From positions 832,001-896,000 of the forward strand of contig JBBCGK010000001.1 in the NCBI GenBank assembly GCA_037200965.1: a stretch of DNA of 64,000 nt. The letters run 5' to 3'. A program made the position numbers and the translations under genes. The notes beneath the pieces were generated by a model. That model saw only the letters and a list, made by a program, of their open reading frames with translations. It did no database searches and was not told the origin of the DNA. Source of the DNA: a bacterium. Its GTDB lineage: Bacteria > Patescibacteriota > Minisyncoccia > Phycocordibacterales > Phycocordibacteraceae. Of the stretch, positions 1,469-50,152 are shown piece by piece (the stretch's first letter is position 1; the number at the start of each line of letters is the position of its first letter).

Positions 1469-2235
1469 GCTGCGCAAACGCCATGCGGGCGGTTGCCGGG
1501 ATAGCCATTGTCCTCGTTTTATCTCTCGGCGGCACACCCTTCGCGTTTGCCGCCGCCATCGATACGAGCTATCCGTATGCCTGGAGCGAGAATGTGGGAT
1601 GGATAAACTTCGCGCCTCCTTCCGGGGACGTCGAGGTAACCGATACCGGGCTTACCGGCTATGCCTGGAGCGGGAATGACGGCTGGATAAGCCTGCATCC
1701 GTCGGACGAAACCTACGTGCATAACGACGGCGGGGGCAATCTCTCGGGCTACGCGTGGGGAGAAAACCTCGGCTATATCGACTTCGCCGGCGTTTCGATA
1801 GATGCGGACGGTTTCTTCCACGGATACGCGAGCTCGACCGCCGCCGGACGCATCAGTTTTAACTGCGGGAATACCGGTTCCTGCGCCGCCGCTGACTTTA
1901 AGGTGCGTACGTTCTGGAGCACGGATATGGAGGCTGTCCCGCATTCATCCGGACGCGGGGGTTCCCCGTTTTTTCCGAACGCACCCGTTCTTTCTCCGGA
2001 GCGTTCTTCCGGCGCCGCGCTTACGGCGTATGGCCCGGTGTCCGGTTCGTTAGCCAGTGCGACGCCCCGTTTTGCCGAAGGAGGGACACGGCTCGCGCCG
2101 CAAACGCTCTTCGATATCGGCGTTCTTCCGCTCGTTTCTTCCCCGTCGTTCATCATTCCGGCATTCGCGCTCGGCGGCATCGCGCTCGCGTTTTTCTTTT
2201 TTGCTTTGCGGCGTTCCCGAAAGCGGGAGTCGTAG
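1465..2235 (+). CDS. Secreted repeat protein with a C-terminal hydrophobic anchor and basic tail (sortase-type sorting-signal-like)
   Basis: N-terminal signal peptide. Three repeats of GYAWSxNxGWIxF. The C-terminus is a TM helix followed by RRSRKRES. The start overlaps the upstream stop by 4 nt. Confidence 0.5.
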   Translation: MSCANAMRAVAGIAIVLVLSLGGTPFAFAAAIDTSYPYAWSENVGWINFAPPSGDVEVTDTGLTGYAWSGNDGWISLHPSDETYVHNDGGGNLSGYAWGENLGYIDFAGVSIDADGFFHGYASSTAAGRISFNCGNTGSCAAADFKVRTFWSTDMEAVPHSSGRGGSPFFPNAPVLSPERSSGAALTAYGPVSGSLASATPRFAEGGTRLAPQTLFDIGVLPLVSSPSFIIPAFALGGIALAFFFFALRRSRKRES

Positions 2236-2544
2236 CGCGGGATTTTTCTGCCTCGATTTAAATCGGCGGTATTTCATATCATGGAGCTACGTTAAATTCC
2301 GTGTTGGTCAAAATACGCAAAAAAGCTTGAGGTATCGAGCCCTTTTGCCTGTTTTGAACGCGAATATACAAACACTTGTTTAATTGGCGGGAAAAACGTA
2401 TTTTTCAAGAACCTCTCCGGGAGCAACGGACCTGTTCCGGCTCGTATGTACGGGCTGGAATTTTCGCATTTAAAGGAATACCGCTTTCTCCGGTACGGAA
2501 AGATACCAACACGAATGGTTACTTAACTCAATCTTCTTATCCTT

Positions 2545-3519
2545 ATGAAGCATTGCCCGTATTGCCAGCATTCCGTTCAGCGCTGGGGTCATACCGAGAG
2601 CGGCGCGAGCCGTTTCTTCTGCCCGTCCTGCCGGAGGACGATAACCCGGAGGAAGCGCAAGGACGTGCGCGAGCGGCATTTACGCCATGAGCTCGACTTG
2701 TGGCTCGGGGGCAAGGACAACCTCAGGGAGATCAGTGAGAAGCGGCACGAGACGCGGCAGACGTTTTGGAAGCACATGCGCCCGCTCCTCAGTTTTCCGT
2801 TCGAGCCCGCGATACCCCGCGATCCGGTCCATACGCTCATCCTCGACGCGACGTACATCCACGGGAACGAGCTCTGCGCTTTGGTGGCGATCGACGAGAA
2901 CGACCGCATTTTCTGGCGTTTCGCGCCGCATGAGTCGTATACGGAGTGGTATGAATTCCTGAAGCTCTTTCCGCGGCCCAAAATCCTCGTCATGGACGGG
3001 CAAAAGGGACTCTTTCTCGCCGCAAGAAGCCTGTGGCCGCTGGTTCCGATACAGCGCTGCCAGTTCCACGTCATCGCCTTCTGCACACAATACACCGGCC
3101 GCCGTCCCAAGGACGACGCGTCCCGGTCCGTCCTCGACCTCCTCTATGAGCTCAAATACGCGAAGACTCCCGAGAGCCGCGACCAATGGATACGGCAGTA
3201 CAAGAAATGGGAGAGCAAATACGACCTCTTCCTCTATGCCCGCGGAAACTCCGGCGGGTACCGGTATCCGAAGCTCAGGAGTATCCGCTACGTCATCCGC
3301 AAGGCGCTGCCGAACCTCTTCACCTTCATCGATCACCCCGGGACCCCGAACACCACGAACCTCGTCGAGGGATGGGTGAACGCGGCGGTTGCTGAGGCGA
3401 TACGGCGGCACCGGGGAATCAAGGACTATGAGAAGAAGGTGCTCGTGTCGATCATCCTCACGCATCTCGTGCGCGGGGGCGACGGGAAGGTGAAGAAGTC
3501 TTTTTACGATTCGCTGTAA
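2545..3519 (+). CDS. DDE transposase with N-terminal zinc ribbon (IS1595/ISL3-like)
   Basis: N-terminal CPYC...CPSC zinc ribbon. Acidic residues sit in LILDATYI and LVMDGQKGL, and there is a C-terminal TTNLVEGW motif typical of IS1595/ISL3-type DDE transposases. Confidence 0.6.
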   Translation: MKHCPYCQHSVQRWGHTESGASRFFCPSCRRTITRRKRKDVRERHLRHELDLWLGGKDNLREISEKRHETRQTFWKHMRPLLSFPFEPAIPRDPVHTLILDATYIHGNELCALVAIDENDRIFWRFAPHESYTEWYEFLKLFPRPKILVMDGQKGLFLAARSLWPLVPIQRCQFHVIAFCTQYTGRRPKDDASRSVLDLLYELKYAKTPESRDQWIRQYKKWESKYDLFLYARGNSGGYRYPKLRSIRYVIRKALPNLFTFIDHPGTPNTTNLVEGWVNAAVAEAIRRHRGIKDYEKKVLVSIILTHLVRGGDGKVKKSFYDSL

Positions 3520-3543
3520 CCGTTTTTTGGTATACTTTGGCGG

Positions 3544-4314
3544 ATGCTCAAAGGACCGCCGCTCGACAAGATATGTCTCGACTTGAAGGGGGTGGATCGG
3601 TCCGGCTATCCTTTTTCGCTCCCTATTTTGGAGAATACGGAAGAAATATTCTTTCCCTCGCAAGTCACGTTCTTTGTGGGCGAGAACGGTACCGGCAAGT
3701 CCACAATTCTCGAGGCGATAGCTGTCATAGCTGGATTCGGGCCGGAAGGGGGAAGCAGGAATATTCATTTCAGCTCCTCCGAGGAACGTTTCCACGATGA
3801 TGCAAGGAAACTCGCCGCGCGCATGCGGCCTTCCTGGAGGAAAAAGCCCGCAGACGGAAACGGGTACTTCTTTCGGGCGGAGAGTTTCTTCAGCTTGGCC
3901 AATCATATCGACACGATCGCCCGTGAAGGCGGACAGGGGCCGGGGGCAGCATATGCGCCGTACGGAGGAAAGTCGCTCCATGAGCAGTCGCACGGCGAGA
4001 GCTTCCTCTCGTTCTTCATTAACCGGATACGTTCAGGCGGGTTTTTCGTCTTTGACGAACCGGAAGCCGCGTTATCTCCGCAGCGCCAGCTTTCGCTCCT
4101 GACAATCATTCACGATCTCTGCGAGGATCCCGATTCGCAATTCGTCATCGCGACTCACTCACCGATCTTGCTTGCGTATCCAGGCGCCACGATTTATTCG
4201 TGCGACAGCGGATCGCTCAGGCAAGTCGGTTATAAGGAAACGAGCCACTACGAGATCACCAGGGAATTTCTGGATAATCCCGAGCGGTATTTCGCGCAAT
4301 TGTTTAAGAAATAA
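3544..4314 (+). CDS. AAA/ABC-type ATPase (COG3910-like predicted ATPase)
   Basis: Walker A GENGTGKST, Walker B FFVFDEPEAALSP, H-loop ATHSP. A ~250-aa standalone ATPase located 25 nt after the transposase. Confidence 0.65.
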   Translation: MLKGPPLDKICLDLKGVDRSGYPFSLPILENTEEIFFPSQVTFFVGENGTGKSTILEAIAVIAGFGPEGGSRNIHFSSSEERFHDDARKLAARMRPSWRKKPADGNGYFFRAESFFSLANHIDTIAREGGQGPGAAYAPYGGKSLHEQSHGESFLSFFINRIRSGGFFVFDEPEAALSPQRQLSLLTIIHDLCEDPDSQFVIATHSPILLAYPGATIYSCDSGSLRQVGYKETSHYEITREFLDNPERYFAQLFKK

Positions 4315-4378
4315 CGAATTCGACTTTTCGGATACCGCATGGCATCCTGCGCTCGGGAAACAGTCCGGGGAGGACGCC

Positions 4379-4801
4379 ATGAAGCTTGCAAAAAGCGTTG
4401 TGGCGGCCTACCACAATGCATTCAATATCAAGTTTGCGCTGCCGTCAGCCGTTTGTAACGGCGCGATCGTGCTTGCGATCAACTGGCCGCATGGATCGAG
4501 CGAAGCCGCGTACGCGGGCCTGTGGCAGGCCTTCGCGTCGTTCTTCTCGACGGGTTTTACGGCGCGCGTCGTCCAGCACTTCTCGCCGATACAATCGCCG
4601 CTACCCGCGTACGCCTTGGGAAGCCTGATTCCCGCGGCGCTTACGTTCGGGATGAGCTTTGCCGCCCATTCCTATAACGGCACTAACGATCCGGTACTAA
4701 GCTCTTTGCCGGCAACGGCGATCAGCCTGGTCACGAGCGTCGGAACGAACTGGCTCACGCGCCGCGGATATCTGCTTCCGGGCAACTATCCGGAATCTTG
4801 A
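4379..4801 (+). CDS. Hypothetical membrane protein
   Basis: Hydrophobic ORF. The internal ATG at 4379 (MKLAKS...) was chosen because the longer ORF overlaps the upstream ATPase gene. Confidence 0.4.
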   Translation: MKLAKSVVAAYHNAFNIKFALPSAVCNGAIVLAINWPHGSSEAAYAGLWQAFASFFSTGFTARVVQHFSPIQSPLPAYALGSLIPAALTFGMSFAAHSYNGTNDPVLSSLPATAISLVTSVGTNWLTRRGYLLPGNYPES

Positions 4802-4885
4802 AGGTCGATCACCCCGCCGGGCCAAAATCCGGCGGGGCATCAGTATATTTTATGCAGGACAGGTTGTATACGTTAAACTGCCTAA

Positions 4886-5410
4886 ATGGAAACCCCGGAA
4901 GCCATTCGCGAATTCGGTATCAAGCGGGAGAACGAAGAACGCCGGGACGGCGGGTGCGGCGTTGTCTTTGACCCCGCGACCCAGCGATACGCTATCGGCA
5001 AGCGGGATATGGACGGGCTGTTTCTTCTGTTTTCCGGCGGCGTTGCGGACGATGAGGATATGGAACAGGGCGTCCTGCGAGAAGTGAGGGAAGAGAGCGG
5101 CCTTCATGATTTTCTGTACGTGGAGAAGATCGCCGAAGCTTTTACGCACTATCACAACAAAGCCAAGAACGTGAACCGGGTTGCCAAGGCCACCTGCTTT
5201 CTCGTTATTCTGAGGAGTTCCGATCTCATACCGACGCAGCTTGAAGCGCATGAGCAGTTCTCGCTCGCGTGGGTTACGACCGAAGATATCCTTTCGAACT
5301 GGCGGGAGCGCAACCAAGACCAGGGTCTCGATCACTGGGTATGGTTCCTCGAAAAGTCAGTCGCACGCGCGATCGAGCTTGGGTACGACACCTCCCGTTC
5401 CGTTGCGTGA
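4886..5410 (+). CDS. NUDIX hydrolase
   Basis: Nudix box GGVADDEDMEQGVLREVREESGL (Gx5Ex7REUxEExGU). Confidence 0.75.
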   Translation: METPEAIREFGIKRENEERRDGGCGVVFDPATQRYAIGKRDMDGLFLLFSGGVADDEDMEQGVLREVREESGLHDFLYVEKIAEAFTHYHNKAKNVNRVAKATCFLVILRSSDLIPTQLEAHEQFSLAWVTTEDILSNWRERNQDQGLDHWVWFLEKSVARAIELGYDTSRSVA

Positions 5411-5527
5411 AGAAAGCCGGTAGTTGCGCGTTATTTCGTTCACCGCCGGTTCACGGCGCGTTTCATACCATACGGGCCGGTGCGGTGTCTCAGTACCGAG
5501 ACGCACCGCATGCGATTAGCAGTCTAA

Positions 5528-6763
5528 TTGCACGAACCTATGCACACCATTGCAGCAAAACTCGGAGCGATGGCGATTGCGCCGTTCATGCTGTTCTCCG
5601 CACACGCGCAGACGCAGCATGCGCCGCCCAAGACGCCCGCGCCCGAACATCCTAAGCCCGAGCTCTCCTGCACGACGCTCGAGCACAATCTTTCCTTCGG
5701 CTCCAGGGACTCGAACACCGACGGGGAAGTGAGCGAACTGCAGGCGTTCCTTCGGGCCGACGGCTATCTGAAGGCCGCCGTCTCGGGGACGTATGGCGCG
5801 GCGACCGCGCGCGCCGTGGCGAGCTTCCAGCGCGACGAGCATATCGCCGCGACCGGCTCCGCGGGTCCTAAGACGCGCGCCGCGATCGAGTCGGCAAGCT
5901 GCGGCGAAGCGTCCGCGGACCTCTCGATCTCCGGGATCGACGCGCCGACCGCCCTTGCGATAGGCGCGGAAGGTACGTGGATCGTGAACGTCGATCAGAA
6001 GGGCGACGGCAATCTCCGCTACTCGGTCAAATGGGGCGACGAGGGCAAGGCGAGGATGATGGCGCTTTCCGCTTCGGAAGAGACCTCTTCTTCCGCGACA
6101 TTCACCCACGCCTATGACAGCGCGGGTACGTACGCGCCCGAGTTCACCGTGACCGACGAGAGCGGCCATACGGCCACCAAAGTCGCGGCTACGGTGACGG
6201 TCGGAAGCGAAGCGGCGGCAGCGCACATCGCGTCGATCGCTCCGAAGTACGGGTATGCGGGAGCAACCGCGACCCTTACGGGCACCGGCTTCCTCGCGGA
6301 TAGCAAGGTGAGCTTCGGCGGCACCGATGCGGAGAACGTCACGGTCATAAGCGACACGTCCGTGACCTTTACCGTCCCGGCGGTCGACCCCGGCACCTAC
6401 GACGTCGCCCTTACGAACGGGAACGGCACGAGCAACGCGGTTTCCTTCAAAGTAATCGCGAAGCCCGCGGCCAAGCTCTCGATCTCGGGAATCGACGCTC
6501 CGGTGAAGCTCTCGGTTGATCAGGAGGGGACGTGGACGGTCCATGCGGATACGAACACGTCCGGCAGCCTCCACTACAGCGTGACATGGGGCGACGAAGG
6601 GGCCATGCGCTCGATGCTTGCGTCGAAGGGTACGGTTCAGACTTCCTCGACCTTCACCCACAGCTACGCGAAGGCGGGGACGTATGCCCCGAAGTTCACG
6701 GTTTCTGACGACAGCGGCAAGAGCGCGTCCGTAAGCGCGACGGTCGTCGTCCGAGCGAAGTAA
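5528..6763 (+). CDS. Secreted protein with a peptidoglycan-binding domain, PKD-like repeats and an IPT/TIG-like domain
   Basis: Signal peptide. PG_binding_1-like segment (GEVSELQAFLRADGYL...ARAVASFQRDEHI). Two repeats LSISGIDAP...GTW...YSVxWGDEG...TFTHxYxxAGTYAP.FTVxDxSG typical of PKD domains. Confidence 0.6.
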   Translation: MHEPMHTIAAKLGAMAIAPFMLFSAHAQTQHAPPKTPAPEHPKPELSCTTLEHNLSFGSRDSNTDGEVSELQAFLRADGYLKAAVSGTYGAATARAVASFQRDEHIAATGSAGPKTRAAIESASCGEASADLSISGIDAPTALAIGAEGTWIVNVDQKGDGNLRYSVKWGDEGKARMMALSASEETSSSATFTHAYDSAGTYAPEFTVTDESGHTATKVAATVTVGSEAAAAHIASIAPKYGYAGATATLTGTGFLADSKVSFGGTDAENVTVISDTSVTFTVPAVDPGTYDVALTNGNGTSNAVSFKVIAKPAAKLSISGIDAPVKLSVDQEGTWTVHADTNTSGSLHYSVTWGDEGAMRSMLASKGTVQTSSTFTHSYAKAGTYAPKFTVSDDSGKSASVSATVVVRAK

Positions 6764-6782
6764 GTTCTTAGTGTTCTTTAAA

Positions 6783-6823
6783 GCGGAAACCCCGCGCGGC
6801 CCCTGGCCGCGCGGGGTTTCCGC
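6783..6823 (+). terminator. GC-rich hairpin (19-bp stem, 3-nt loop) downstream of the PKD-protein gene; no U-tract
   Basis: gcggaaaccccgcgcggcc-cct-ggccgcgcggggtttccgc is a perfect inverted repeat, 20 nt after the stop. Confidence 0.4.
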
Positions 6824-6855
6824 TGCGCATAAAGGCCATAGAGTAGAATGGCGGG

Positions 6856-7218
6856 ATGGACAGCTTTGCATTTGGCGACAGCCCGGCAATGGCCGATGAA
6901 CTCCTCGGTCTCGTACTAAGCGGCAAGAAGACCGCTACGGCCTGGGCTGCAAGCCAGGGAATCAAAGGGACGGAAGTAGGAAAGCGCGAAGTTATTAAGG
7001 ATGGCGCGGGAAGAGAGCGCGTGATTATTGAAACCACGGAGATCGTACCCCGTCCATTCTCTGAGGTCGACGCGAGCTTCGCGCGCGATGAAGGCGAAGG
7101 TGACCTGTCCCTCGCGTATTGGCGGCAGGCGCACAAGAGATACTTCACCCGCGAAGGCACGTATGCGGATGATATGGAGGTGTATTGCCAGCGTTTCCGC
7201 ATCGTGGAGGTTTTGTAG
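6856..7218 (+). CDS. ASCH domain protein
   Basis: Size and motifs typical of the ASCH/PUA-like fold (LGLVLSGKKTATAW... tail). Confidence 0.55.
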   Translation: MDSFAFGDSPAMADELLGLVLSGKKTATAWAASQGIKGTEVGKREVIKDGAGRERVIIETTEIVPRPFSEVDASFARDEGEGDLSLAYWRQAHKRYFTREGTYADDMEVYCQRFRIVEVL

Positions 7219-7235
7219 GGGAAGGTTATACTTAT

Positions 7236-7646
7236 CCCATGGCCGAGGCATTCAACCATCAGGCGCTTGGTTTGAGCAAAGACCGCCCGCTGGTCTATAC
7301 GGCGATGTCCAAGCATCTTTTCTATTACCGCATGTTCATTTCGAAATATGTTCTCGAGAACGGTGCCGTCCCGCTCAATCCTTTCATGGTGTTCGATTAT
7401 TTTTTGCTTGATGCCGTCGACCGCGACCTTGTCCGGGAGGGGAATAACAATCTCGTAAAAAGATGCGACGAGTTTTGGGTCTTTGGGGCCGTGAGCAACG
7501 GCGTTCTCGCGGAAATCAAGATCGCCCGCGCGAAAGGGAAACCCGTCAAGTATTTCAAGATAGAAAAGCCGCACAAAATCGTGCCGGTCGAGAAAGAACA
7601 GGTAGAACTCGAAGCGGATATAGAAGCATTCAGGTCAGAATTGTAG
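7236..7646 (+). CDS. Nucleoside 2-deoxyribosyltransferase-like (DUF4406-like) Rossmann protein
   Basis: C-terminal SNGVLAEIKIARAKGKPV resembles the S.G..E.G.A.A.GKPV motif of the Ndt-like family. Start chosen at the internal MAEAF. Confidence 0.35.
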   Translation, partial: PMAEAFNHQALGLSKDRPLVYTAMSKHLFYYRMFISKYVLENGAVPLNPFMVFDYFLLDAVDRDLVREGNNNLVKRCDEFWVFGAVSNGVLAEIKIARAKGKPVKYFKIEKPHKIVPVEKEQVELEADIEAFRSEL

Positions 7647-7653
7647 CCGCGCC

Positions 7654-8067
7654 ATGGGTACCATTACTTTCACGGTCTCCCTCAAAGAGGTACGACCATC
7701 GGATCTCTCCGGATTTTTCGTCGGCTGGCAGACTCCGCCTTCACCGGAAAAGTTCCTGCGGTTGCTGACCAACAGCGAATACCGGGTACTGGCGCTCGAC
7801 GGCGAGAAAGTCGTCGGTTTCATCACCGCCATAACGGACAAGACACTTGCCGCATACATCCCGTTTCTCGAAGTACTGCCTGAATATCAAGGCAGAGGAA
7901 TAGGGCAGAAACTCGTAAAACAAATGCTCGATCTTCTAAGCGAGTATTACATGGTTGATCTGCTCTGTGATGCGGAACTCCAGCCTTTTTACGAGAAGCT
8001 CGGCATGAAAAAGACGGCAGGGATGATGGTACGGAATTATGCAAAACAGAGCGGCTTGGATATATAA
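7654..8067 (+). CDS. GNAT family N-acetyltransferase
   Basis: Acetyl-CoA binding motif QGRGIGQKLV. Confidence 0.7.
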   Translation: MGTITFTVSLKEVRPSDLSGFFVGWQTPPSPEKFLRLLTNSEYRVLALDGEKVVGFITAITDKTLAAYIPFLEVLPEYQGRGIGQKLVKQMLDLLSEYYMVDLLCDAELQPFYEKLGMKKTAGMMVRNYAKQSGLDI

Positions 8068-8095
8068 AACCCGAGAAGATCCGTCTTCCTGTCCT

Positions 8096-8527
8096 TTATA
8101 GGGCCGCTTTAATTGTGCCAGCAATCTCAACCAACTCTTCGTCAGGACTTTTAGCGCGGCTTCCGGGACGATACAGGAAGACCCGCGGATCGTACCGATG
8201 AATACCCGCATCACCTTCTGTGCGGGGAACGACGTGAAGATGGAAATGAGGAACCGCCTGGCCGCCCATTTCTCCGTGATTCCATGCAAAGTTAAACCCC
8301 TTCGCGTCAAAGACTTTTTCCAGTGCCGTCTGCAGCTTATTCCTAAGATCCTCGATTGCCAGCTGTTCGTATGAAGTCAGCTCCCCATAATATTCAACGT
8401 GGCGTTTGGGAGAAACGAGGAGATGGCCGGGAGTAATCGGCAGGTTCGTCGGAAAAGCAAATGCGAGTTCGTTTTCAACCACGATCTGTTTCTGGATTTC
8501 GGGATTTTCACAAAATACGCAGCTCAT
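8096..8527 (-). CDS. HIT family (histidine triad) protein
   Basis: HIT motif HFHLHVVPR. N-terminal CxxC. Confidence 0.8.
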   Translation of the reverse strand: MSCVFCENPEIQKQIVVENELAFAFPTNLPITPGHLLVSPKRHVEYYGELTSYEQLAIEDLRNKLQTALEKVFDAKGFNFAWNHGEMGGQAVPHFHLHVVPRTEGDAGIHRYDPRVFLYRPGSRAKSPDEELVEIAGTIKAAL

Positions 8528-8611
8528 GCAGGGAGTATACAGTAAACGATCCCGACGCTCTGCTCCGGATTATGTATCTGCAGCGGCTGTCTTGGTATAA
8601 AATGTCCTTCT

Positions 8612-9286
8612 ATGCAGTTGTCGGAATTGCAGGGAAATCTATATCGAGATACGTATCTTTTCGATCCGGTATCGTACGGAAGGATATTCGCATTCGTGGA
8701 TTTCGCGAATGTCCGGCACTGGGCAAAGAGTTTTTGGCCTATAGAGAACAGGCTCTTCCTCCAAAAGGAGATTGATATCAGCAAGGTGGGGAAAGTCATA
8801 GACACTGTTAAGCCAAGCAGAAAGTTCTTCTACTATGGATACCACCGGGAACATCCCGAGCTCTCTGCACAGCATGAATTAAATAAGAAGCATCGGAAAT
8901 CGTGGTACCGTATAGCTAAAGCACAGGACTGCGGGTTCTCCACACGCCAGAAAGAGATAAAGGAGATCAACGATTTCGACGAGGACGGAAAATTCGTCGG
9001 CGTGCGTAGGAAGTGCAATTTCGATATCGAGATGGCTATGGACATGCTGCGACATGTCGAGCAATACGATACGGTATTCCTACGGTCCGGCGACAGCGAC
9101 TTCCATAAGCTTCTTCTCTATCTGAAGGAAAAGAAAAAGAAGCAGGTCATTACGGTTTGCGCACGGGACTTCGTAAGCAAGGAGGTGGATGAGTGTTCTG
9201 ATCTTTTCATTCCCGCAGATCCATTCAAGGATATTCTCGAGTATGTAAAAGACACCTCCCCCGGCTTGCGCCAGGGGAGGGCATAA
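8612..9286 (+). CDS. NYN/LabA-like (PIN-fold) domain protein
   Basis: FDIEMAMDM ... VFLRSGDSDFHKLLLYLKEKKKQVITV is the characteristic NYN acidic-residue pattern. Confidence 0.55.
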   Translation: MQLSELQGNLYRDTYLFDPVSYGRIFAFVDFANVRHWAKSFWPIENRLFLQKEIDISKVGKVIDTVKPSRKFFYYGYHREHPELSAQHELNKKHRKSWYRIAKAQDCGFSTRQKEIKEINDFDEDGKFVGVRRKCNFDIEMAMDMLRHVEQYDTVFLRSGDSDFHKLLLYLKEKKKKQVITVCARDFVSKEVDECSDLFIPADPFKDILEYVKDTSPGLRQGRA

Positions 9287-18383: not shown

Positions 18384-19219
18384 TCAAGAAGTAATTGCAC
18401 CACCTCCGAAGAGTGCTAATGGTGTCTTGTACCCGAACCGCTTTCTCGGCCGCTCGTTCAGAGCCAGCTCAATCTCCCGTATCCGTGCCTCCGATACTGT
18501 TGCGAAGTCCGTGCCTTTGGGCAGGTACCATCGTATCAAGCCATTGACGTTCTCATTCGCCCCACGCTCCGATGATGTGTATGGGTGAGCGAAATACACC
18601 TGTACGCTTCTGCCGTCTTGCGGGGTATCTTCTCAATCGCCACGTACCCGCTCTTGCGCTCAAGCAGGGTGACCAAGGCAACCGATGATGCACGCGAGAC
18701 GATGAGGTCGCCCTCCCAGTCGCCAAGACGACTTCGGCGATCCACTGCCTTCGGACGTGCCTCGATCGAGCGTTTGTGTGGGTTCGGGAGACGCTGATGC
18801 TTCCTGAAGCCCTTCCGGTGCCTCGTTTTGTGGCGGCGTTTGAGAAGCGAGCGCAGGTCCTCGCCACCATTCTTCCATTCATCGTATACAAACTGGTATA
18901 TCGTCTCGTGCGACACGCCGCCCACGGTGCCAGCGACTTGTTCGGGCGACCACCCACGCCTCAAGCCAGCGGCAATCTTTTCTCGAAGACCGGCAGTTCG
19001 TATGCGCCCCTGTGTCTCGTGTCGTTTCGACTGTGCTCTCGCCTCCGCAAGCCGGGGCGTATATCGCCGCACTAACGCGGGCATGTTCTTGTTCACCTCG
19101 CGCGACACTGAGGACGGAGACCGTCCAAGGCTCTGGGCGATGGCCCGAATTGACCGCTTCTCCCAGAGTCCTTGCTGTATTTGCTCACGCTCTTCAATAC
19201 CGAAATGCCTGTGTGCCAT
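18384..19219 (-). pseudogene. IS30-family transposase, disrupted by at least two frameshifts
   Basis: N-terminal 227-aa frame (HTH ... DWEGDLI) ends at 18536. A third frame near 18700-18760 reads TLDRGTSEG (DDE second Asp region). The C-terminal frame (18384..18599) reads HPYTSSERGANENVNGLIRWYLPKGTDF...NERPRKRFGYKTP. A degenerate IR TGTTGCGTTT... lies at ~19233. Confidence 0.7.
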
Positions 19220-40375: not shown

Positions 40376-40966
40376 CTATACCGTTTCTTCCGGAACCGCC
40401 TTAAGTTTCTTGAATCTCGCGTGGCCTATGAAGAAGGCGATTCCCGCGACGAGAAGCACGATAGGCCAGCGGAAAACTCCGAGCCAGCCGAAGGTGAAGA
40501 AGCCGAAGAGGTAGGCGATCGTGAACAGCACCACCGACCACAGCACGTCCGAAATGAAGACGATCGGCGCGAACCGCTTCCACGGCACCCCGAAGAATCC
40601 GCAGGCGAGGAATATCGGAAGCCGGAAACCCGGAAGGAAGCGGGCCGTAAGCACGGTCGTCAGGAGTTCGTCGTGGATCCAGTTCTTGAAAGGGGCAGCG
40701 CGCTCGTGCTCGACGAAGCTCTGGAGCCAGGGATGGGTCCTGGCATAGCTTCCGATGCCGTAGAAGAGGAAGTCCGTGACCGCGACACCAAAGATTACGG
40801 CGGGCACCGCGACGAGCGGGGAGATATAGCGGTCCGCGGCCATCACCCCCGCAAAGACGACCGATACGTCCTCGAGGAGCATGCTGCCGAGGGCGATAAA
40901 GAGGGGCAGGTACCCGCTGTGCGCCCCCGCCTCGAGCATGTGGTGGATAAGGAACGAGAGATGCAT
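40376..40966 (-). CDS. DedA/VTT family membrane protein
   Basis: Multi-TM with the conserved FLPGFR motif of the DedA family. Confidence 0.7.
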   Translation of the reverse strand: MHLSFLIHHMLEAGAHSGYLPLFIALGSMLLEDVSVVFAGVMAADRYISPLVAVPAVIFGVAVTDFLFYGIGSYARTHPWLQSFVEHERAAPFKNWIHDELLTTVLTARFLPGFRLPIFLACGFFGVPWKRFAPIVFISDVLWSVVLFTIAYLFGFFTFGWLGVFRWPIVLLVAGIAFFIGHARFKKLKAVPEETV

Positions 40967-41136: not shown

Positions 41137-41370
41137 ATGAACAAGGAAAAGATTAAAGGAGAGTCATCTAGGGATAGATTTAAGCGTTTAGCAACGCTTC
41201 GTACCAACGGAGTACTCAGTCGGCTTAAAATACTTGGAAATTGTTCCAATCGTCATGTCTATGAATACGACGAGGAAGATATAGATAAAATCTTTTTTGA
41301 AATTGAACGCAAACTTAAGGAAGTAAAGGCTAAGTTTCATTTTCCAAAGCAGCGTGATTTTAAATTATAG
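41137..41370 (+). CDS. Small basic hypothetical protein (77 aa) coupled to the downstream large gene
   Basis: AT-rich ORF. Its stop is 5 nt before the 41376 start. No recognisable HTH. Confidence 0.45.
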   Translation: MNKEKIKGESSRDRFKRLATLRTNGVLSRLKILGNCSNRHVYEYDEEDIDKIFFEIERKLKEVKAKFHFPKQRDFKL

Positions 41371-41375
41371 AAACT

Positions 41376-43889
41376 ATGTCGCGGCCTCTAAAAAATAGAG
41401 AAGTCTTTTCGAAACTACTCAGCGCAGTTTCTTCAGAAGAGATAGCGTCTTTAATCGAAAACGAAGTCTTTTTTAAACCAGAAAATTGCAGATGGATTCC
41501 TTATGGAAGACGTGAGCTGAATGCCCCACAGATCGAGGGACAAATGAAAAGCTCAAGTAATGCGTTGGTAGAAAAAATCACCAATTCAACAGATGCTCTC
41601 CTAATGAGGCGATGCTATGAAGTCGAAGGGGTGGCACCTAATAGCGAAGACAAACGATTACCCAAGACTCTTTCTGAAGCAATTACAAAATATTTTGGAA
41701 GCGAAGAAGAAATAAATAAAAATCGAAGCGCATGGGCAAGACAGCATCTCATGGTTTTGGCTGAGGGTGATAAAAAGAGGCCAACAATTACTGTTATTGA
41801 TCGAGGCGAAGGACAAACTCCCAATAGAATTCAGGATACAATCGTTGGCTTGAGCGAGAGCATAAAGGAGAAAATAAATTTTGTTTTTGGTAAATACCAT
41901 CAAGGAGGGTCAGCCGCTATACGTTTTGCAGGTAGCAAAGCTAAGTGCTACCAGCTTGTCCTGTCCCGGCGCGCGGAGAGTATTGCCGATAAAGGTAAAG
42001 AAAATCCGTGGGGATTTACGTTGGTAAGGAAAAGTTTTAAAAACAGAGTTCCTTATTACGAATACTGCACAGACAAGGATGAAAACACCTTTTCTTTCCC
42101 GTACGATAAACCAATAAAAATTGATGGTCTGGAACTGGACTTTATCGATGGGTCACTTATCCGTATGTACGATTACTACTTGGATAATCCATCAAATATC
42201 ACTTTCGGGTTTCATTCACTGGCCTTCGATTTTGATCAAAAGTTACAGAAACCGCCACTCCCTATCTTTCTGCAAGATAAGAGAGGATGGAAAGGAGACA
42301 CTAAATATACAATTGCAGGCTTACTAAGGCGAATTGAGGATAATAAAAATATTATCAGCGATGATATTACCCTTCCTGCAGGTTTAGGAGAGATCGGAAC
42401 TCGCAATATCCGCTGCATTCGCTTGAAGCATATAAGCGATGCGGAAGGAGTAAAATCCTATAAAGAATTAAATCAGAAAATATTCTACCTGGAAAACGGT
42501 TTGGCTTTGGGATATGAGACCGAATCTTTTGTGCGAACAGATTGTCAGCTTCCCGCTCTGGCCCCCTATCTCCTCTGTTATATCGATATGTCTGATATTC
42601 CAGTTGAGTTGGTAAATATCTTTCACTCTGGAAGAGAAGAATTGGCTCGAACCGAGGATTATCACATCTTAAAAGATCGCCTAAAAAAGTTCTTTGAGAA
42701 TGAAGTCTTTGAGAAGTGGGATAGAGAATACCAAGAAAAAAGCTTGATCAATTCCAATGAGGATAATAAGGAACTCGATAAGCTCATTGAGAAGGCCATC
42801 GTCGATGATCCGGAACTCAAGGAGTTACTGGGTATTGGTGAAGAAATCAAGATCCCGAAGGGGAAAGAGGAGAATAAGGAGAAGTACATTGGCGAGGAAC
42901 ATCCAAAAATGTTTGAGCTTGTAGGGAGTCAACCAAAAGAGGTTGATAAATCTTCTTACGCCCTTATATCTTTTAAGACCGAGGCAGAAGATAAACTCTT
43001 TACTAGAAAAAAGAGCCGCTATTATATTGATTGGTCCAAAGATTCAACCATCCTTGATGTGGTGGTTCGTAGTATGAATAAAGGTATTGTGTCTTTGCGC
43101 GTGGATTGCAGGGAACATGCCAGCGTTGGCGATCAGGATAAGATTACTTTCACTCTGCTGGATTCTGAAAAAGTAAAAAAGTTTGAACAAATCGTTACAT
43201 TTAACGTAATTGAAACACCGCCTTATGAAGGTTCATATTTCCCAACGTACTTTAAGCCATTGAAGAAAACGCTGAAGATTCCATCGAAAACAAACAAAAA
43301 GTTTAGTTTTGCTACAGACGTTGCAAATGATTATTTCTCCAGAGAGGATGATCCTGGATTGTTTGAATTTGAAGATCGTGATGATCTGCGTTTAAAAAAG
43401 TCCCGTTTAAATGATGGCGTTCTCGAAATTACCTTTTATGCCGCTACTGAAAAGTTGGGGAAACTACCGGATGCTAAAGTAGTAATTAGCGATACTTCAA
43501 ATCATACGTTTGATATCTCTATACCCATCGAGATCGTCTCTCCCGAGGAGAGTTCCAGGCTTAACGAACCAAAGAGAAATCCTGTATATGAAAGAGACTG
43601 GCCCACTCACGGCTGGGATGAACATAGTATTGCCAGTGTTGATTCGTCCAGGACACAAGGCTTAATAGTAAATTTGAACGTAGATTCTAAGCCCTTGAAG
43701 GATTTAAAGAAAATGGTTGGCCTTGATAAAGTCGGAAGCGCAGAGAATAAATATATTGCCGATATTTACATTTATTCCCTCTATCTTTATTTTGAACTAA
43801 AAAATGATCCTGACAAGGATCGGGTTCTAGGTTCTGCAATGAAGGCTATTGGGAAGGCCCTTCCCGGAATGATAAGAAAAATCATTTAA
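41376..43889 (+). CDS. Large (837 aa) protein with an N-terminal GHKL (MutL/MORC/HATPase_c-like) ATPase domain; C-terminal ~600 aa unassigned
   Basis: Bergerat-fold motifs: N-box LVEKITNSTDAL (E..NS.DA), G1 box ITVIDRGEGQTP (DxGxG), G2-like FGKYHQGGSAAI. The gene is AT-rich and convergent with a DNA MTase. Confidence 0.6.
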   Translation: MSRPLKNREVFSKLLSAVSSEEIASLIENEVFFKPENCRWIPYGRRELNAPQIEGQMKSSSNALVEKITNSTDALLMRRCYEVEGVAPNSEDKRLPKTLSEAITKYFGSEEEINKNRSAWARQHLMVLAEGDKKRPTITVIDRGEGQTPNRIQDTIVGLSESIKEKINFVFGKYHQGGSAAIRFAGSKAKCYQLVLSRRAESIADKGKENPWGFTLVRKSFKNRVPYYEYCTDKDENTFSFPYDKPIKIDGLELDFIDGSLIRMYDYYLDNPSNITFGFHSLAFDFDQKLQKPPLPIFLQDKRGWKGDTKYTIAGLLRRIEDNKNIISDDITLPAGLGEIGTRNIRCIRLKHISDAEGVKSYKELNQKIFYLENGLALGYETESFVRTDCQLPALAPYLLCYIDMSDIPVELVNIFHSGREELARTEDYHILKDRLKKFFENEVFEKWDREYQEKSLINSNEDNKELDKLIEKAIVDDPELKELLGIGEEIKIPKGKEENKEKYIGEEHPKMFELVGSQPKEVDKSSYALISFKTEAEDKLFTRKKSRYYIDWSKDSTILDVVVRSMNKGIVSLRVDCREHASVGDQDKITFTLLDSEKVKKFEQIVTFNVIETPPYEGSYFPTYFKPLKKTLKIPSKTNKKFSFATDVANDYFSREDDPGLFEFEDRDDLRLKKSRLNDGVLEITFYAATEKLGKLPDAKVVISDTSNHTFDISIPIEIVSPEESSRLNEPKRNPVYERDWPTHGWDEHSIASVDSSRTQGLIVNLNVDSKPLKDLKKMVGLDKVGSAENKYIADIYIYSLYLYFELKNDPDKDRVLGSAMKAIGKALPGMIRKII

Positions 43890-45202
43890 TTCTTCTCCAT
43901 TACGACTATATATTCAAATTCATACGCACGAGTTTTTGAAGGATTGTCCATTCCAGTAAACTTTCCGCTTTCAGTATCACGCCACGGAGTTATCATTTTA
44001 TTTGGTATTTCCCGCTTAATAAAGTCTACGTTCGTAAAACCAGCGGCCTGCATCTGTTCTGCCGCCACCTGTGCGTTCTGAATTTCTACACCCCGAAGAC
44101 TTGTGTTTCCAATAATTACGCAAGCCTTCCCGCCCTTCTTAAGAATTCGATGAGCCTCGGCGAAGACTTTTTTCATATCTAGGAAGTAATTAGCAACGTC
44201 GATAGCAAGCGGGCGTTCAACTAGCATGAGATCGTCGACAATTTTCGCCCCTATGATGCTATTAAAATTGCCGGCCTTTTTGGTCTTTGAACTCGTACCA
44301 ATAAAAGTTCTGCGAAAATCTATGAAACTATTACTGAAGTGATGCCATTTCTTGAAGTGTTTAGCATCGTCCCCGAACCACAGCAACGTAAGCTGATGAA
44401 GATCAGCATACTCATAGGAAGTCACATAAGGCGGAGAAGTCACTATCAAGTCGATAGATTCGGATTTAATTGGGAATGTTTTGGTCGAATCTCGACGATA
44501 CATTTTTGTCGGGATGCTGATGCGTTTTGCTTCAGCTAGGTTGTTGTAAAATAAATCATTCTTTCTAATCATTGAATCCAGATGTCGAAGAAAGGACTGT
44601 TTAGGGACCGGTATGATCTTGTCTTTGTCAACTGTCGGCTTGATACTTTTCATTAACCATCGAGAGCAGTTTTTCAGGTTATGTGAGAAAGCGCACAAGA
44701 AAAATCTACGAACGTGCGGACTCTTAATTTTCTTTATTGCAAAGTAAATTCTATCGAGCTCAATAACGGTTTCCGCATCGAACCAATAAGTAATTCGAGC
44801 ATGATGTGGGCGAGAGACGCTCGGAGCTGCATCATAGTATTCCAAGAATCTCTCTTTATGATTTGCAAGTGTACGCGGCTTAATCGCGGTGGTCTTTGTT
44901 TGAGTGATTAACTTCGCAACTGGATTTATATCAAAGCCGATACTCGGATGTCCTAGTAACTTTGCTTCCACCAAAGTCGTGCCACACCCACCGAATGGAT
45001 CACAAACGACTTGTGTAGTATGCGGCGCGTAATCTTCAATCAATTTACGAACAATTTGCGGAATAAACTTTGCCGGGTAACGATGATAGTCGTGGGAAAA
45101 GGCAGTAGTTTGTGAGCGACCAATATCTCGAAAAGACCACTCTTCACGCGGTTGCAGGCTTAAAAAAGTATTTCGGATGTTTTCGATATCAACAGTGGCC
45201 AT
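43886..45202 (-). CDS. N6-adenine/N4-cytosine DNA methyltransferase
   Basis: Motif X/I YPAKFIPQIVRKLIEDYAPHTTQVVCDPFGGCGTT and motif IV LIVTSPPY. AT-rich. Start taken at MATVDIEN; the longer ORF runs to 45277. Confidence 0.8.
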   Translation of the reverse strand: MATVDIENIRNTFLSLQPREEWSFRDIGRSQTTAFSHDYHRYPAKFIPQIVRKLIEDYAPHTTQVVCDPFGGCGTTLVEAKLLGHPSIGFDINPVAKLITQTKTTAIKPRTLANHKERFLEYYDAAPSVSRPHHARITYWFDAETVIELDRIYFAIKKIKSPHVRRFFLCAFSHNLKNCSRWLMKSIKPTVDKDKIIPVPKQSFLRHLDSMIRKNDLFYNNLAEAKRISIPTKMYRRDSTKTFPIKSESIDLIVTSPPYVTSYEYADLHQLTLLWFGDDAKHFKKWHHFSNSFIDFRRTFIGTSSKTKKAGNFNSIIGAKIVDDLMLVERPLAIDVANYFLDMKKVFAEAHRILKKGGKACVIIGNTSLRGVEIQNAQVAAEQMQAAGFTNVDFIKREIPNKMITPWRDTESGKFTGMDNPSKTRAYEFEYIVVMEKN

Positions 45203-45352
45203 ACTAAGAGGTAGTATAAGGGCAGGCCGGAGACGATTCAAGCACATGTCGTGTGTTCTTTGGCCCGGAGGAGCCACAGCAGATTCCGAAGTACATACAA
45301 GCGGTATCTTCGGTTTATTCGATAATTATCACCACGCGCGTATAATGGCTGC

Positions 45353-46354
45353 ATGGCTAAACGGAAAAAGGACTCAGAGATACATATGCCCGTCGATGTC
45401 GTCGTGTACCAGGCCAAAAGCGGAGCTATCGAGCTGCGCGGCGATTTCAGCAGGGAAACGGTCTGGGCGACGCAGGCACAGATTGCAGAGGTTTTCGGCG
45501 TTGAGCGATCCGTCGTGACCAAGCACATCCGGAATATTCTCAAGGACAAGGAACTTGAGGAACGTTCAGTACGTGCAAAACTTGCACATACTGCCGGGGA
45601 CGGCAAGACGTACCAAGTCGAGCATTATAACCTCGATGCCATCATTTCCGTTGGATATCGCGTGAACTCAAAGACAGCCACGGCGTTCCGCCAGTGGGCG
45701 ACGAAGACCCTGCGCTCGCATATCGTCGAGGGCTATACGATCAACCGCGCCCGCGTCGCGAAGAACTACGACGCGTTCATACGCGCGGTCGGTGAGATCA
45801 AGGCGCTTTTGCCCTCCCGTGCCGCGATCGGGGACGCAGGCGTCCTTGAGCTTGTCGCATTTTTCGCAGACACCTGGCTGTCGCTCGATGCGTACGATCG
45901 CGAGCGCTTCGTCCCGGTCCGCACGACCCGCAAGAAGGTCGCGCTTACCGCCGACATCCTCATGCGGAGCGTCTCGGTCCTTAAGTCGGAACTCATCGCG
46001 CGCGGCGAAGCGTCGGAACTCTTCGCCGCCGAGCGGGAGGTGAAGGCCCTTGAAGGGATCGTCGGCAACGTCTTGCAGTCGTTTGGCGGAAAAGAGCTCT
46101 ATCCGAGCGTCGAGGAGAAGGCGGCGCACCTTCTTTATTTCATCGTGAAAAACCATCCGTTCGCAGGCGGCAATAAACGCACGGGCGCATACGCGTTCGT
46201 CTGGTTCCTTGACCGTGCGAAGGTACTGGACCGGGAACGCATTACCCCGAGCGCACTCACCGCGCTCACGCTGCTCGTCGCGGAGAGCGATCCGAAGGAG
46301 AAAGAACGCATTACCGGCCTCGTGACGATGCTTCTCGGGCTCTCAAAGAAATGA
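45353..46354 (+). CDS. RhuM-family N-terminal domain fused to a Fic/Doc domain
   Basis: The N-terminal IELRGDFSRETVWATQAQIAEVFGVERSVVTKHIRNI...YNLDAIISVGYRVNSKTATAFRQWAT matches RhuM. The C-terminal HPFAGGNKRTGAYAF matches the Doc-type HxFx(D/N)(A/G)NKR motif. Confidence 0.75.
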   Translation: MAKRKKDSEIHMPVDVVVYQAKSGAIELRGDFSRETVWATQAQIAEVFGVERSVVTKHIRNILKDKELEERSVRAKLAHTAGDGKTYQVEHYNLDAIISVGYRVNSKTATAFRQWATKTLRSHIVEGYTINRARVAKNYDAFIRAVGEIKALLPSRAAIGDAGVLELVAFFADTWLSLDAYDRERFVPVRTTRKKVALTADILMRSVSVLKSELIARGEASELFAAEREVKALEGIVGNVLQSFGGKELYPSVEEKAAHLLYFIVKNHPFAGGNKRTGAYAFVWFLDRAKVLDRERITPSALTALTLLVAESDPKEKERITGLVTMLLGLSKK

Positions 46355-46361
46355 CGGGTAT

Positions 46362-48041
46362 ATGACGCAAGGCGAAGCGCTCAATATCCTCAAGACAGGC
46401 GCGAACGTCTTTCTCACGGGCGAGCCTGGGAGCGGCAAGACCCACACCGTAAACGAATATGTCGCATGGCTCCGTTCCCATGACATCGAGCCCGCGATCA
46501 CGGCTTCGACCGGGATAGCCGCCACCCATATCCAGGGAATGACGATCCACTCATGGAGCGGCATCGGGATAGCGGAATCGCTGTCGGAAGCCGATCTCGA
46601 CCGGATCGCAAGCAAGGAGCACGTCGCGCGGAGAATCGCGAAGACGCATGTTCTCATTATCGACGAGGTGTCGATGCTATCGGGCGAAGTGCTCCGGATG
46701 GCGGACCGGGTATGCCGGGAAGTGCGCAGAAGGCCGGAGCCGTTCGGCGGGCTGCAGGTGGTTCTCGTGGGCGATTTCTTCCAGCTGCCGCCCGTGACCC
46801 GGGGGGGAAAGGAAGTAAGCTTCGCCTTCGATTCGCCTTCGTGGCGGGAGCTCAACCCGATCATCTGCTATCTCACCGAACAGCACCGGCAGGACGACGC
46901 GAAGTTCACCGCCGTGCTCTCGGCGATACGCGCGGGAGACTGGGACCAGTCGCATGTTTCGGCGATCACATCCCGCGAGACCGACGGCGACGAGCTCGGG
47001 GACGAGACGCCCCGGCTCTTCACGCACAATGCGGACGTGGACCGTATCAACGGCGACAAGCTCGCGGGCATTAAAGGAAACGCGAAGACGTACGAAATGG
47101 AGTCGAGCGGATCCCCGGTCCTCATCGAGGCGCTTAAGCGCGGCTGCCTTTCGCCCGAAACTCTTACGCTTAAAGAAGGCGCGATCGTGATGTGCACTAA
47201 GAATAACCAGGCCGCGGGATACGTGAACGGGACCCTGGGAACCGTGATCGGCTTCTCGACAGGCTGGGGCGCCTCCGCGAGCCCCATAATCGAGACGAAA
47301 GACGGCCGCGAACTCACCATAGAGCCCGCGGACTGGGCGGTCGAAGAAAACGGCAAGGTACGGGCGAAAGTAACTCAGGTGCCGCTCCGCCTTGCCTGGG
47401 CGATCACGGTCCACAAAAGCCAGGGGATGAGTATGGACAGTGCGGCTATGGACCTCTCGAGGGCATTTGAATACGGGCAAGGATATGTGGCGCTCTCGCG
47501 TGTACGGTCGCTCGACGGACTCCACCTCCTTGGCTGGAGCGAGGAAGCGCTCAGGGTACATCCGGCCGTGGCCGCGAGGGATGCGGAATTCCGCGAGGCT
47601 TCGCTTGAAGCGGGCGCGGCATTTTCAGCGCTCGAAGAAGACGGGAGCCGTGAGACTATGGAGCGCAATTTCATCAAGGCCTCGGGCGGCACGCTTGAGG
47701 CGCGGGAAGCGGGGAAGCCCAAACCACCAAAGAGAAGCACGTACGAAGAAACCCTCGCGCTTATCGAAGCGGGGAAGACGATCGAGGGAGTGGCAGCCGC
47801 CCGCGCGCTCACGTTCGGCACCATCACGGACCACGTGGAGAAGCTCGTGAAGGGCGGGAAGCTCGATACGGAAGACGTGCGGCGCATTATCCCGGTCAGA
47901 CTCCACGATGCGCTCCCGGATATTTTCGAGGTATTCCGGGCCGTGGGCGCAGAGAAGCTCGCGCCCGCATTCGCGCGGCTTGGGAGCGAGCACGGCTACG
48001 ACGACCTGCGTCTCGCGCGGCTTCTCTATGAACGAAAGTAG
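46362..48041 (+). CDS. PIF1/RecD-like SF1B DNA helicase with a C-terminal HTH-like domain
   Basis: Walker A GEPGSGKTH, Walker B IIDEVSML, FGGLQVVLVGDFFQLPPV (PIF1 signature), and a C-terminal KTIEGVAAARALTFGTITDHVEKLVKGG. Confidence 0.8.
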   Translation: MTQGEALNILKTGANVFLTGEPGSGKTHTVNEYVAWLRSHDIEPAITASTGIAATHIQGMTIHSWSGIGIAESLSEADLDRIASKEHVARRIAKTHVLIIDEVSMLSGEVLRMADRVCREVRRRPEPFGGLQVVLVGDFFQLPPVTRGGKEVSFAFDSPSWRELNPIICYLTEQHRQDDAKFTAVLSAIRAGDWDQSHVSAITSRETDGDELGDETPRLFTHNADVDRINGDKLAGIKGNAKTYEMESSGSPVLIEALKRGCLSPETLTLKEGAIVMCTKNNQAAGYVNGTLGTVIGFSTGWGASASPIIETKDGRELTIEPADWAVEENGKVRAKVTQVPLRLAWAITVHKSQGMSMDSAAMDLSRAFEYGQGYVALSRVRSLDGLHLLGWSEEALRVHPAVAARDAEFREASLEAGAAFSALEEDGSRETMERNFIKASGGTLEAREAGKPKPPKRSTYEETLALIEAGKTIEGVAAARALTFGTITDHVEKLVKGGKLDTEDVRRIIPVRLHDALPDIFEVFRAVGAEKLAPAFARLGSEHGYDDLRLARLLYERK

Positions 48042-49147: not shown

Positions 49148-50152
49148 TTGAATTCTAGCTTGAAACGCAACAACCCGTATTGAAAAGCGCATACCCGCAG
49201 GTACGCTAGGAGTGTTGAATCACCTAAGCACCAACGGGTATGCATACACACAATACGCGCGACATGCGCGTTTCGCTAGGCGCGCTCCTGCGCGCTGGTG
49301 TGAAGAAAGCTGGGATCGCGCGGCAACTGGGCGTCCACCGCTCGACCATCTCAAGGGAGTTGAAACGGAACGCGAAGAAGAACGGGCGGTATCACGCCAC
49401 GCACGCGGACGTGCGTGCGAAGGCACGCCGCATGAAGAGCAAGGAGGCGGGACGCCTCCTTGCAAACAATCAGCAGTTGGCTGACCTTGTCGAGGCACTC
49501 CTTGACCCACTCGTCTCTCCAGAGGTGATCGCACACCTTCTCGACATATCGCACGAGACGATATACGCGTGGCTATATCGCACCCGTCCTGATCTGTTGG
49601 CTCGTCTGCCGCAGCGAGGAAGGAAGCGCCGCCGATATGGCTCAAAGCGTACGCAGAAACAAGGATGGACCAAGAACGTGCGTTCCATTGAGGAGCGCAC
49701 AGAACCTGGCTGGGAGGGCGATACCGTCAAAGGCGCAGGTCGTGAACGCATCCTCACCCACGTGCACCAGAGCTTGTATCTCGTTGCCGACCTAATCCCG
49801 AACGGCACGGCAGATGTCGTGCATGCGGTACTGAAGTCGCATCAGAAAGTCACCGGGACCATCACGTACGACCGCGGGAGCGAGTTCGCACTCTGGCAGT
49901 TCATTGAACGTGATACCGATGCCACCGTGTACTTCGCACACGCACACCATCCGTGGGAGCGCGGGAAGAACGAGAATACCAATGGCCGCCTGCGGCGACC
50001 ATTCCCCAAACGGCTGAACCTGGGTACCATATCCAAAGACGACCTTGCGGACGTGGTGGACCTCATGAACCACACGCCGCGGAAGTCTCTCTCCTGGCAG
50101 ACCTCGTGCGTGCGCTTTGGGAAGGCGTGTTGCGTTTCAGATTAGAATTCAA
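49148..50152 (+). mobile_element. IS30-family insertion sequence, apparently intact, with 25-26 bp imperfect terminal inverted repeats and possible GGG target duplication
   Basis: IRL 49148- TTGAATTCTAGCTTGAAACGCAACA. IRR, read as the reverse complement of 50128-50152, is TTGAATTCTAATCTGAAACGCAACA (22/25 identical). GGG runs flank both ends. Confidence 0.75.
49240..50145 (+). CDS. IS30 family transposase
   Basis: HTH ([20 protein letters not shown]). DDE core: [42 protein letters not shown]. Confidence 0.85.

Follow-up and report, generated by a model that had tools for sequence, protein, structure and literature searches.

A RhuM-Doc fusion gene and the PIF1 helicase gene downstream of it in a Patescibacteria genome: neighbours probably by insertion and descent, not partners

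P1 Doc, the toxin of the Phd-Doc type II toxin-antitoxin system, is a kinase of the elongation factor EF-Tu, and proteins of its type carry the active-site motif HxFx(D/N)(A/G)NKR, in which the lysine at position 8 is the mark of the kinase type (PMC4177925). The fusion of such a domain to an N-terminal RhuM domain, together with its occurrence in restriction-modification (R-M) and defence neighbourhoods, has been known since 2013 (Anantharaman et al., PMC3710099), and the resulting RhuM/Fic/DOC family is modelled in PADLOC as a single-gene candidate, PDC-S23. Here we analyze a gene of this family, hereafter rhuM-doc, and the gene for a PIF1-like superfamily 1B (SF1B) helicase that follows it, hereafter pif1, in a stretch of 64,000 nucleotides from a Paceibacterota-like metagenome-assembled genome (MAG) of Patescibacteria (contig JBBCGK010000001.1, assembly GCA_037200965.1), the whole of which is called the window below. 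An earlier, sequence-only reading had proposed that the two genes form a pair that may cooperate with, or represent the landing pad for, an adjacent AT-rich island. Our results indicate that they are quite probably neighbours by insertion and descent, not partners; the features concerned are collected in table 1.

RhuM-Doc is a full-length member of this large, already named family. Two Pfam domains score above cut-off in its single chain, Virulence_RhuM (PF13310) at residues 73-137 (73.6 bits, cut-off 33.7) and Fic/DOC (PF02661) at residues 214-286 (46.8 bits, cut-off 24), which bears out the fusion of a RhuM N-terminus to a Doc-type Fic domain that had been read from the sequence. Three PDC-S23 models, which describe a single-gene phage-defence candidate, match residues 15-328, the best of them (PDLC04965, E=3e-106) over positions 6-323 of its 327; the protein thus has the same length, end-to-end two-domain architecture and Doc-type motif context as the family. 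More than 8000 homologues were scored in a protein search, and all of the best 120 listed share the RhuM+Fic architecture, while 8614 homologues at E<=1e-10 emerged when the representatives of 50%-identity clusters were searched exhaustively. The likeness to Salmonella RhuM of pathogenicity island SPI-3, and to the RhuM-only PDC-S05 models of PADLOC, is confined to an N-terminal module of about 125 residues: the profile models match just residues ~15-138 (E down to 1e-59), and positions 2-69 of the 252 in the Pfam Virulence_RhuM profile are covered, whereas positions 70-252 are replaced by a linker and the Doc domain. Unlike P1 Doc, to which its kinase activity and target would be assigned by analogy, RhuM-Doc has a region of ~200 residues, comprising the putative DNA-binding part and linker, fused N-terminally, and it has no Phd-like antitoxin gene. 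The N-terminal fold resembles DNA-binding domains and the C-terminal domain has the compact helical core of the Doc fold. No Fic inhibitory-helix motif [S/T]xxxE[G/N] was seen by eye in the sequence; Doc-type enzymes are not regulated by an internal Fic inhibitory helix.

The evidence that the two genes are not partners comes from reciprocal surveys of their neighbourhoods. In 80 genome loci encoding RhuM-Doc homologues (52-67% identity), 68 of which extend for 1 kb or more downstream, the adjacent gene is never a PIF1 gene, and a single locus has one 5.5 kb away. Conversely, no RhuM-Doc gene was found at 82 loci of helicase orthologues (48-83% identity; the open reading frame [ORF] could be delimited in 76, and 52 of these include 1.1 kb or more upstream), one of which shows a weak match of 80 amino acids (aa). 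The upstream neighbours of these orthologues are mostly housekeeping genes, for instance that of arginyl-tRNA synthetase in 9-11 of 65, and none encodes Fic or RhuM. The 142 immediate neighbours of the 80 RhuM-Doc homologues match 155 Pfam families, none of them in more than five members, their largest blastp cluster has three members, and the close homologues P0003, P0005 and P0007 are surrounded by housekeeping genes with no helicase nearby. Since these neighbours are essentially random, RhuM-Doc has no conserved partner or antitoxin, as is also the case for its family: clustering of the 142 neighbour ORFs revealed no conserved small antitoxin-like ORF, the kind of gene for which the earlier reading had suggested a search, and no conserved small ORF of Phd type lies immediately upstream either in the window or at the homologue loci. 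The arrangement is shared with a single other locus, L166 (considered below). Because the sequence-only reading had made its proposal depend on the two genes being conserved as neighbours, the claim of cooperation fails by its own standard.

A two-gene defence or toxin system, in which the helicase would sense or process foreign DNA and Doc would arrest translation, could still be argued from the common strand, from the gap of 7 nt, in which neither a terminator nor a promoter is predicted, from the 4-nt overlap of the two ORFs in L166 (the closest relative carrying RhuM-Doc) and from the presence of SF1 helicases in some defence systems; the helicase, moreover, has weak partial matches to RecD-like models of PADLOC (E~1e-16, P-loop region only). 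However, the neighbourhood survey has already largely refuted this reading, to which we would now give a very slim chance: besides the counts above, no helicase lies near the closest other RhuM-Doc homologues, the PADLOC model is of a single gene, and in relatives without RhuM-Doc (L082, the P0123 contig and L083) pif1 is just as conserved and its downstream synteny is the same.

The properties of the helicase lead in the same direction. Its PIF1 (PF05970, 125 bits, cut-off 25.9), Pif1_2B (PF21530, 34.7 bits, cut-off 23.9) and HTH_40 domains were all identified by Pfam, so that the description as a PIF1-like SF1B helicase with a C-terminal tail resembling a helix-turn-helix (HTH) stands. The structure of human PIF1 (6hpt) matches it at E=2e-69, and the alignment brings into register the motifs GEPGSGKT (Walker A), IIDEVSM (Walker B), HKSQGMS and YVALSRVRS as well as the Pif1 signature region, PFGGLQ..GDFFQLPPV (pattern PFGG.Q...GDF.QLPPV). 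The protein thus has the full core, the 2B domain and all the motifs of the PIF1 helicases of known structure (human PIF1, yeast Pif1 and Bacteroides Pif1), and differs from them in having the C-terminal HTH_40 domain, which is common in Patescibacteria homologues, and in having no N-terminal extension. Of more than 8000 homologues, the best 120 listed are 64-83% identical, share the combination of PIF1 and HTH_40 and belong mostly to Paceibacterota. The downstream gene order PIF1 … DoxX-like - BipA - DEAD-box helicase is retained in relatives. From its sequence and synteny we take pif1 to be a vertically inherited housekeeping gene for a 5'-3' SF1B helicase of this Patescibacteria lineage; the helicase is unrelated to the function of RhuM-Doc. 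Of note, an IS30-like transposase ORF with an HTH_38/HTH_23 N-terminus (49240-50145, + strand) lies between the DoxX-like gene and bipA in the window and is absent from L082 and the P0123 contig, where BipA directly follows DoxX; a second, diverged IS30-like fragment (28-37% identical) is present at 18387-19144 on the - strand.

How the two genes came to be adjacent can be approached with two close relatives. L166, a 2.7-kb metagenome contig, is the sole recurrence of the arrangement: its RhuM-Doc is the closest homologue of all (P0002, 73% identity) and the PIF1 gene next to it is 86% identical to that of the window. L082 has pif1 without RhuM-Doc and unrelated DNA directly upstream, the nucleotide homology with the window starting precisely at the pif1 ATG (46362). 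The helicases of the window, L166 and L082 are roughly equidistant, with 83-86% identity over the same 361 residues. These near-equal distances, the situation in L082 and the reciprocal surveys together point to a lineage-specific arrangement maintained by descent, not to a recurrent association.

The region upstream of rhuM-doc suggests what this descent involved. Because site counts in our promoter and terminator scan were not above shuffled expectation across the region, we have used only the one site with comparative support; GCGTATAAT occurs a single time in the 64-kb window. The string GCGCGTATAAT-N6-ATG is identical before rhuM-doc in the window and before pif1 in L082, and L166 has a -10-like element, CGCGTATACT-N8-ATG, before its rhuM-doc. 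In L166 as in the window, the 70 nt that precede rhuM-doc are similar to those that precede pif1 in L082, and the blocks TTyCATCGGAATTT and TTTATCGCCA are common to the upstream regions of L166 and L082; among 28 comparisons, this similarity exceeds that of shuffled sequences only for the three predicted pairs (p~0.003-0.03). The rhuM-doc ORF therefore probably separates the start codon of pif1 from its promoter, with pif1 now the second cistron, and co-transcription of the two genes may be inferred because neither a promoter-like nor a terminator-like site is predicted in the spacer. Since the -10 element ends so close to the ATG, the rhuM-doc transcript may be leaderless or have a very short leader. 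A related observation concerns the pif1 orthologues of many Patescibacteria (60 nt upstream, loci L082-L163), in which a TAnAAT element ends 6-8 nt before the start codon, often as TAGAAT or TATAAT and frequently preceded by TG-n, with no evident Shine-Dalgarno-like spacing; this pattern suggests leaderless or very short-leader mRNAs in the pif1-bearing lineages of Patescibacteria.

Several points weigh against the explanation by insertion and descent. The promoter homology consists of identities of 11-14 nt, and the p values given above stand before correction for the 28 comparisons. The 7-nt gap, the 4-nt overlap in L166 and the retention of the pair in two lineages at about 14% divergence of the helicase protein would fit a functional operon. 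Our literature search retrieved no experimental function for RhuM-DOC or PDC-S23, the toxin or defence role being an inference, and no mutants of Doc D70, so that the effect of glycine at position 5 of the motif (discussed below) is deduced from general Fic chemistry. Taken furthest, the operon argument would have rhuM-doc captured, disarmed by its active-site substitution and co-opted to regulate or work with PIF1 as a lineage-specific functional operon, a scenario which we regard as the least probable of those considered here.

The substitution in question affects the Doc motif of this copy. The family consensus HPFxDGNKR conforms to the Doc motif, whereas the window copy, HPFAGGNKR (within HPFAGGNKRTG, encoded at 46154-46186), departs from it, and from P1 Doc, in having glycine, neither D nor N, at position 5 while retaining the H, F, G, N, K and R. 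G273, N274 and K275 do not vary in the family, and H268 and R276 are nearly invariant. Aspartate at position 5 is itself nearly invariant, being shared by 119 of the 120 closest homologues listed (the sole exception is this strain's own protein), in 76/76 genome loci and in 83 of 86 diverse representatives. The codon for Gly272 (GGC, 46166-46168) is one A-to-G transition away from the Asp codon of the family, GAC. The substitution, D272G, is genuine and does not stem from an assembly error, because it is found in both of two independent assemblies, the second of which (GCA_015655515.1) contains the same 6.5 kb with both genes at 99.97% identity; the identical proteins at NCBI, encoded on a contig of 960 kb, are MEJ0054074.1, annotated as 'virulence protein RhuM/Fic/DOC family protein', and MEJ0054075.1, the helicase. 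As the acidic residue of the motif binds substrate or nucleotide through Mg2+ in canonical Fic enzymes (PMC5033356), the D272G copy is probably attenuated or inactive, by analogy with those enzymes. Catalytic degeneration of the Fic motif, which the sequence-only reading had named as evidence that would count against it, is not seen in the family, whose motif is intact and of Doc type; this copy has the unique D272G change.

It could be argued further that the window copy is a domesticated, catalytically dead Doc whose winged HTH now serves as a DNA-binding regulator, for instance of pif1. The uniqueness of D272G at an otherwise near-invariant position and its fixation in two assemblies, the otherwise intact ORF within the apparent pif1 transcription unit and the likeness of the N-terminal fold to DNA-binding domains are compatible with this idea, but the H, N, K and R of the catalytic motif are all kept, the sister allele of L166 has aspartate at the same genomic position, and a single substitution fits recent neutral decay or residual activity equally well; as there is also no evidence of a binding site, we consider such domestication to be very improbable.

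The wider family seems to travel on its own. Homologues with 52-67% identity (loci L002-L081) come from Patescibacteria, Saccharibacteria, Legionellales and other Gammaproteobacteria, Bdellovibrionales, Myxococcales, Nitrospirales and a Woesearchaeota MAG, and proteins from very different phyla share 55-67% identity. Such taxonomic scatter suggests extensive horizontal transfer, above all among lineages that have small genomes or are host-associated; in these, Patescibacteria included, RhuM/Fic/DOC proteins are abundant. A prophage origin of rhuM-doc was considered and rejected, for only one of 50,697 phage records carries a near-full-length homologue, at 34% identity; the N-terminal module alone is present in satellite phages of Streptococcus and in Wolbachia phage WO. 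The window copy also differs from its closest relatives in a mosaic segment, residues 44-100 (45482-45652), which corresponds to the predicted HTH and wing: the proteins that are closest overall (P0002, P0003, P0005 and P0007) have 71-85% identity elsewhere and 35-48% across this segment, whereas more distant homologues reach 70-88% over it (88% in P0042). This mosaic pattern suggests that the putative DNA-recognition segment has been swapped by recombination among alleles of the family.

Table 1. Features of the rhuM-doc and pif1 locus, with nucleotide positions in the window
Feature	Nucleotides	Strand	Residues	Description
VTT-domain gene	40376-40966			Upstream border of the variable interval
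AT-rich three-gene cassette	41137-45202			77-aa ORF (+), 837-aa ORF (+), convergent N4/N6 DNA methyltransferase (-)
Promoter-like site	45319-45346	+		TCGATA-16-TATAAT; consensus scan 10/12; -10 ends 6 nt before rhuM-doc ATG
rhuM-doc	45353-46354	+		ORF of 333 aa
RhuM-Doc N-terminal domain			~17-126	Beta + winged-HTH-like
RhuM-Doc linker			128-182	Long helices
RhuM-Doc C-terminal domain			~200-329	Doc fold
Doc-type Fic active-site motif	46154-46180	+		H268-P-F-A-G272-G-N-K275-R276; sequence read directly
rhuM-doc/pif1 spacer	46355-46361	+		7 nt; no promoter-like or terminator-like site predicted
pif1	46362-48041	+		ORF of 559 aa
Helicase core			3-411	Of the 559-aa PIF1 protein
HTH_40 domain	47739-48020	+	460-553	Pfam, 52.7 bits

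Both ORFs lie where they had been placed, the helicase ATG starting at the eighth nucleotide past the rhuM-doc stop codon, and their composition is host-like as had been claimed: rhuM-doc has a GC content of 0.587 (0.73 at third codon positions, GC3) and pif1 one of 0.622 (GC3 0.76), close to the flanking core genes (about 0.60, GC3 0.77-0.84) and unlike the three genes of the AT-rich cassette (0.35-0.42). The methyltransferase of this cassette matches Pfam N6_N4_Mtase and PADLOC MTase_II. Genes in the order of the cassette recur, at 42-75% identity, in L171, L172 and L173, whose contexts are unrelated, each time with an ORF of 75-77 aa, one of 837-842 aa and a methyltransferase, and neither RhuM-Doc nor PIF1 is found beside it at these three loci; the suggested partnership of the helicase with the island is thus not borne out. 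Two features of the cassette may be recorded here. The family of its 837-aa protein comprises 108 database proteins, mostly from Patescibacteria; the protein has no match in Pfam, NCBIfam, PADLOC, PHROG or PDB sequences, and the strings ALVEKITNSTDA and VIDRGEGQ, picked out by eye, are candidate GHKL-like elements. The start of the methyltransferase is ambiguous between a GTG at 45277 (longest ORF, 43886-45277 on the - strand, 463 aa) and 45202 (public calls, 438 aa), and the choice sets the divergent intergenic region to rhuM-doc at 75 or 150 nt.

With the divergent methyltransferase gene only about 150 nt from rhuM-doc, and with RhuM/DOC genes having been reported within R-M loci (PMC3710099, PMC9881135), RhuM-Doc might be thought to belong to the cassette, in a multi-level arrangement of R-M and toxin. 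This we judge very unlikely, since the GC3 of rhuM-doc (0.73) contrasts with that of the cassette (0.32-0.42), the cassette homologues do not have RhuM-Doc, rhuM-doc and pif1 of L166 are preceded by a 141-aa ORF and not by a methyltransferase, and among the 142 neighbours of RhuM-Doc homologues N6_Mtase occurs in two and ResIII in five. In contrast to family members that lie inside an R-M operon and are inherited together with it, the window copy lies apparently within the pif1 transcription unit. The absence of a methyltransferase immediately upstream of rhuM-doc in L166, taken with the recurrence of the cassette elsewhere without either gene, indicates that cassette and rhuM-doc were acquired independently in one hotspot. 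That the interval between the VTT and pif1 genes behaves as a defence or R-M hotspot in this lineage follows from the P0123 contig (JGI 3300045391; helicase 75% identical), which has the same DsbA-VTT … PIF1 frame around different cargo (genes at 1396-8974: a C5 DNA methyltransferase and a Cas4-like PD-(D/E)XK nuclease, together with two small ORFs and two more of 266 and 172 aa). The 102-aa ORF directly upstream of pif1 in L082 (19-327, + strand) and the 141-aa ORF of L166 (210-635, - strand) match nothing in Pfam or PHROG, have no counterpart in the window and represent further cargo of this site. The idea of a landing pad therefore survives loosely, in the sense of an interval with different cargo in the P0123 contig and L082; that of cooperation with the island does not. 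No boundary of the island was recognized: a search of 40.8-46.5 kb for direct or inverted repeats gave only short ones at chance level, and no tRNA gene is near, the only one in the window lying at 60.4 kb.

The explanation that we favour, and hold as a whole to be quite likely, is that rhuM-doc is a stand-alone, horizontally spreading gene. Its product would be a single chain in which long helices connect a winged-HTH-like DNA-binding domain with a Doc-type kinase domain and, by analogy with P1 Doc (PMC4177925), the family would act as a self-contained toxin or abortive-infection effector that phosphorylates a translation GTPase such as EF-Tu and so arrests translation and growth. The trigger would be sensed by the N-terminal domain, control being intramolecular or trigger-dependent and not exerted by a Phd antitoxin; a role in abortive-infection-type defence would be in line with the candidate status of the family in PADLOC. 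In the ancestor of this strain and L166, the ORF would have entered the variable interval that collects defence-type cargo, exactly between promoter and start codon of pif1, to be transcribed from that promoter as the first cistron with pif1 after it. The AT-rich methyltransferase cassette would have entered later and independently, and D272G would disarm the copy of this strain.

Both protein families already have names, the fusion was described in 2013 and the proposed pair is no system; the value of the analysis is thus mostly negative, in that a plausible pair of toxin and helicase is removed from the candidates for defence. Tight spacing and shared GC content are not evidence of a system when one of the genes is a syntenic core gene. 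Minor points of interest are the unique active-site substitution, the apparent capture of a promoter and the mosaic HTH and wing segment, and the family, abundant and widely spread with a function assigned by analogy, would chiefly concern specialists. For these, L166 and the window provide a natural pair of alleles at the acidic position of the motif, aspartate in the former and glycine in the latter. Finally, rhuM-doc appears to separate the start codon of a core gene precisely from its promoter, an illustration of how solo defence or toxin genes can gain expression.

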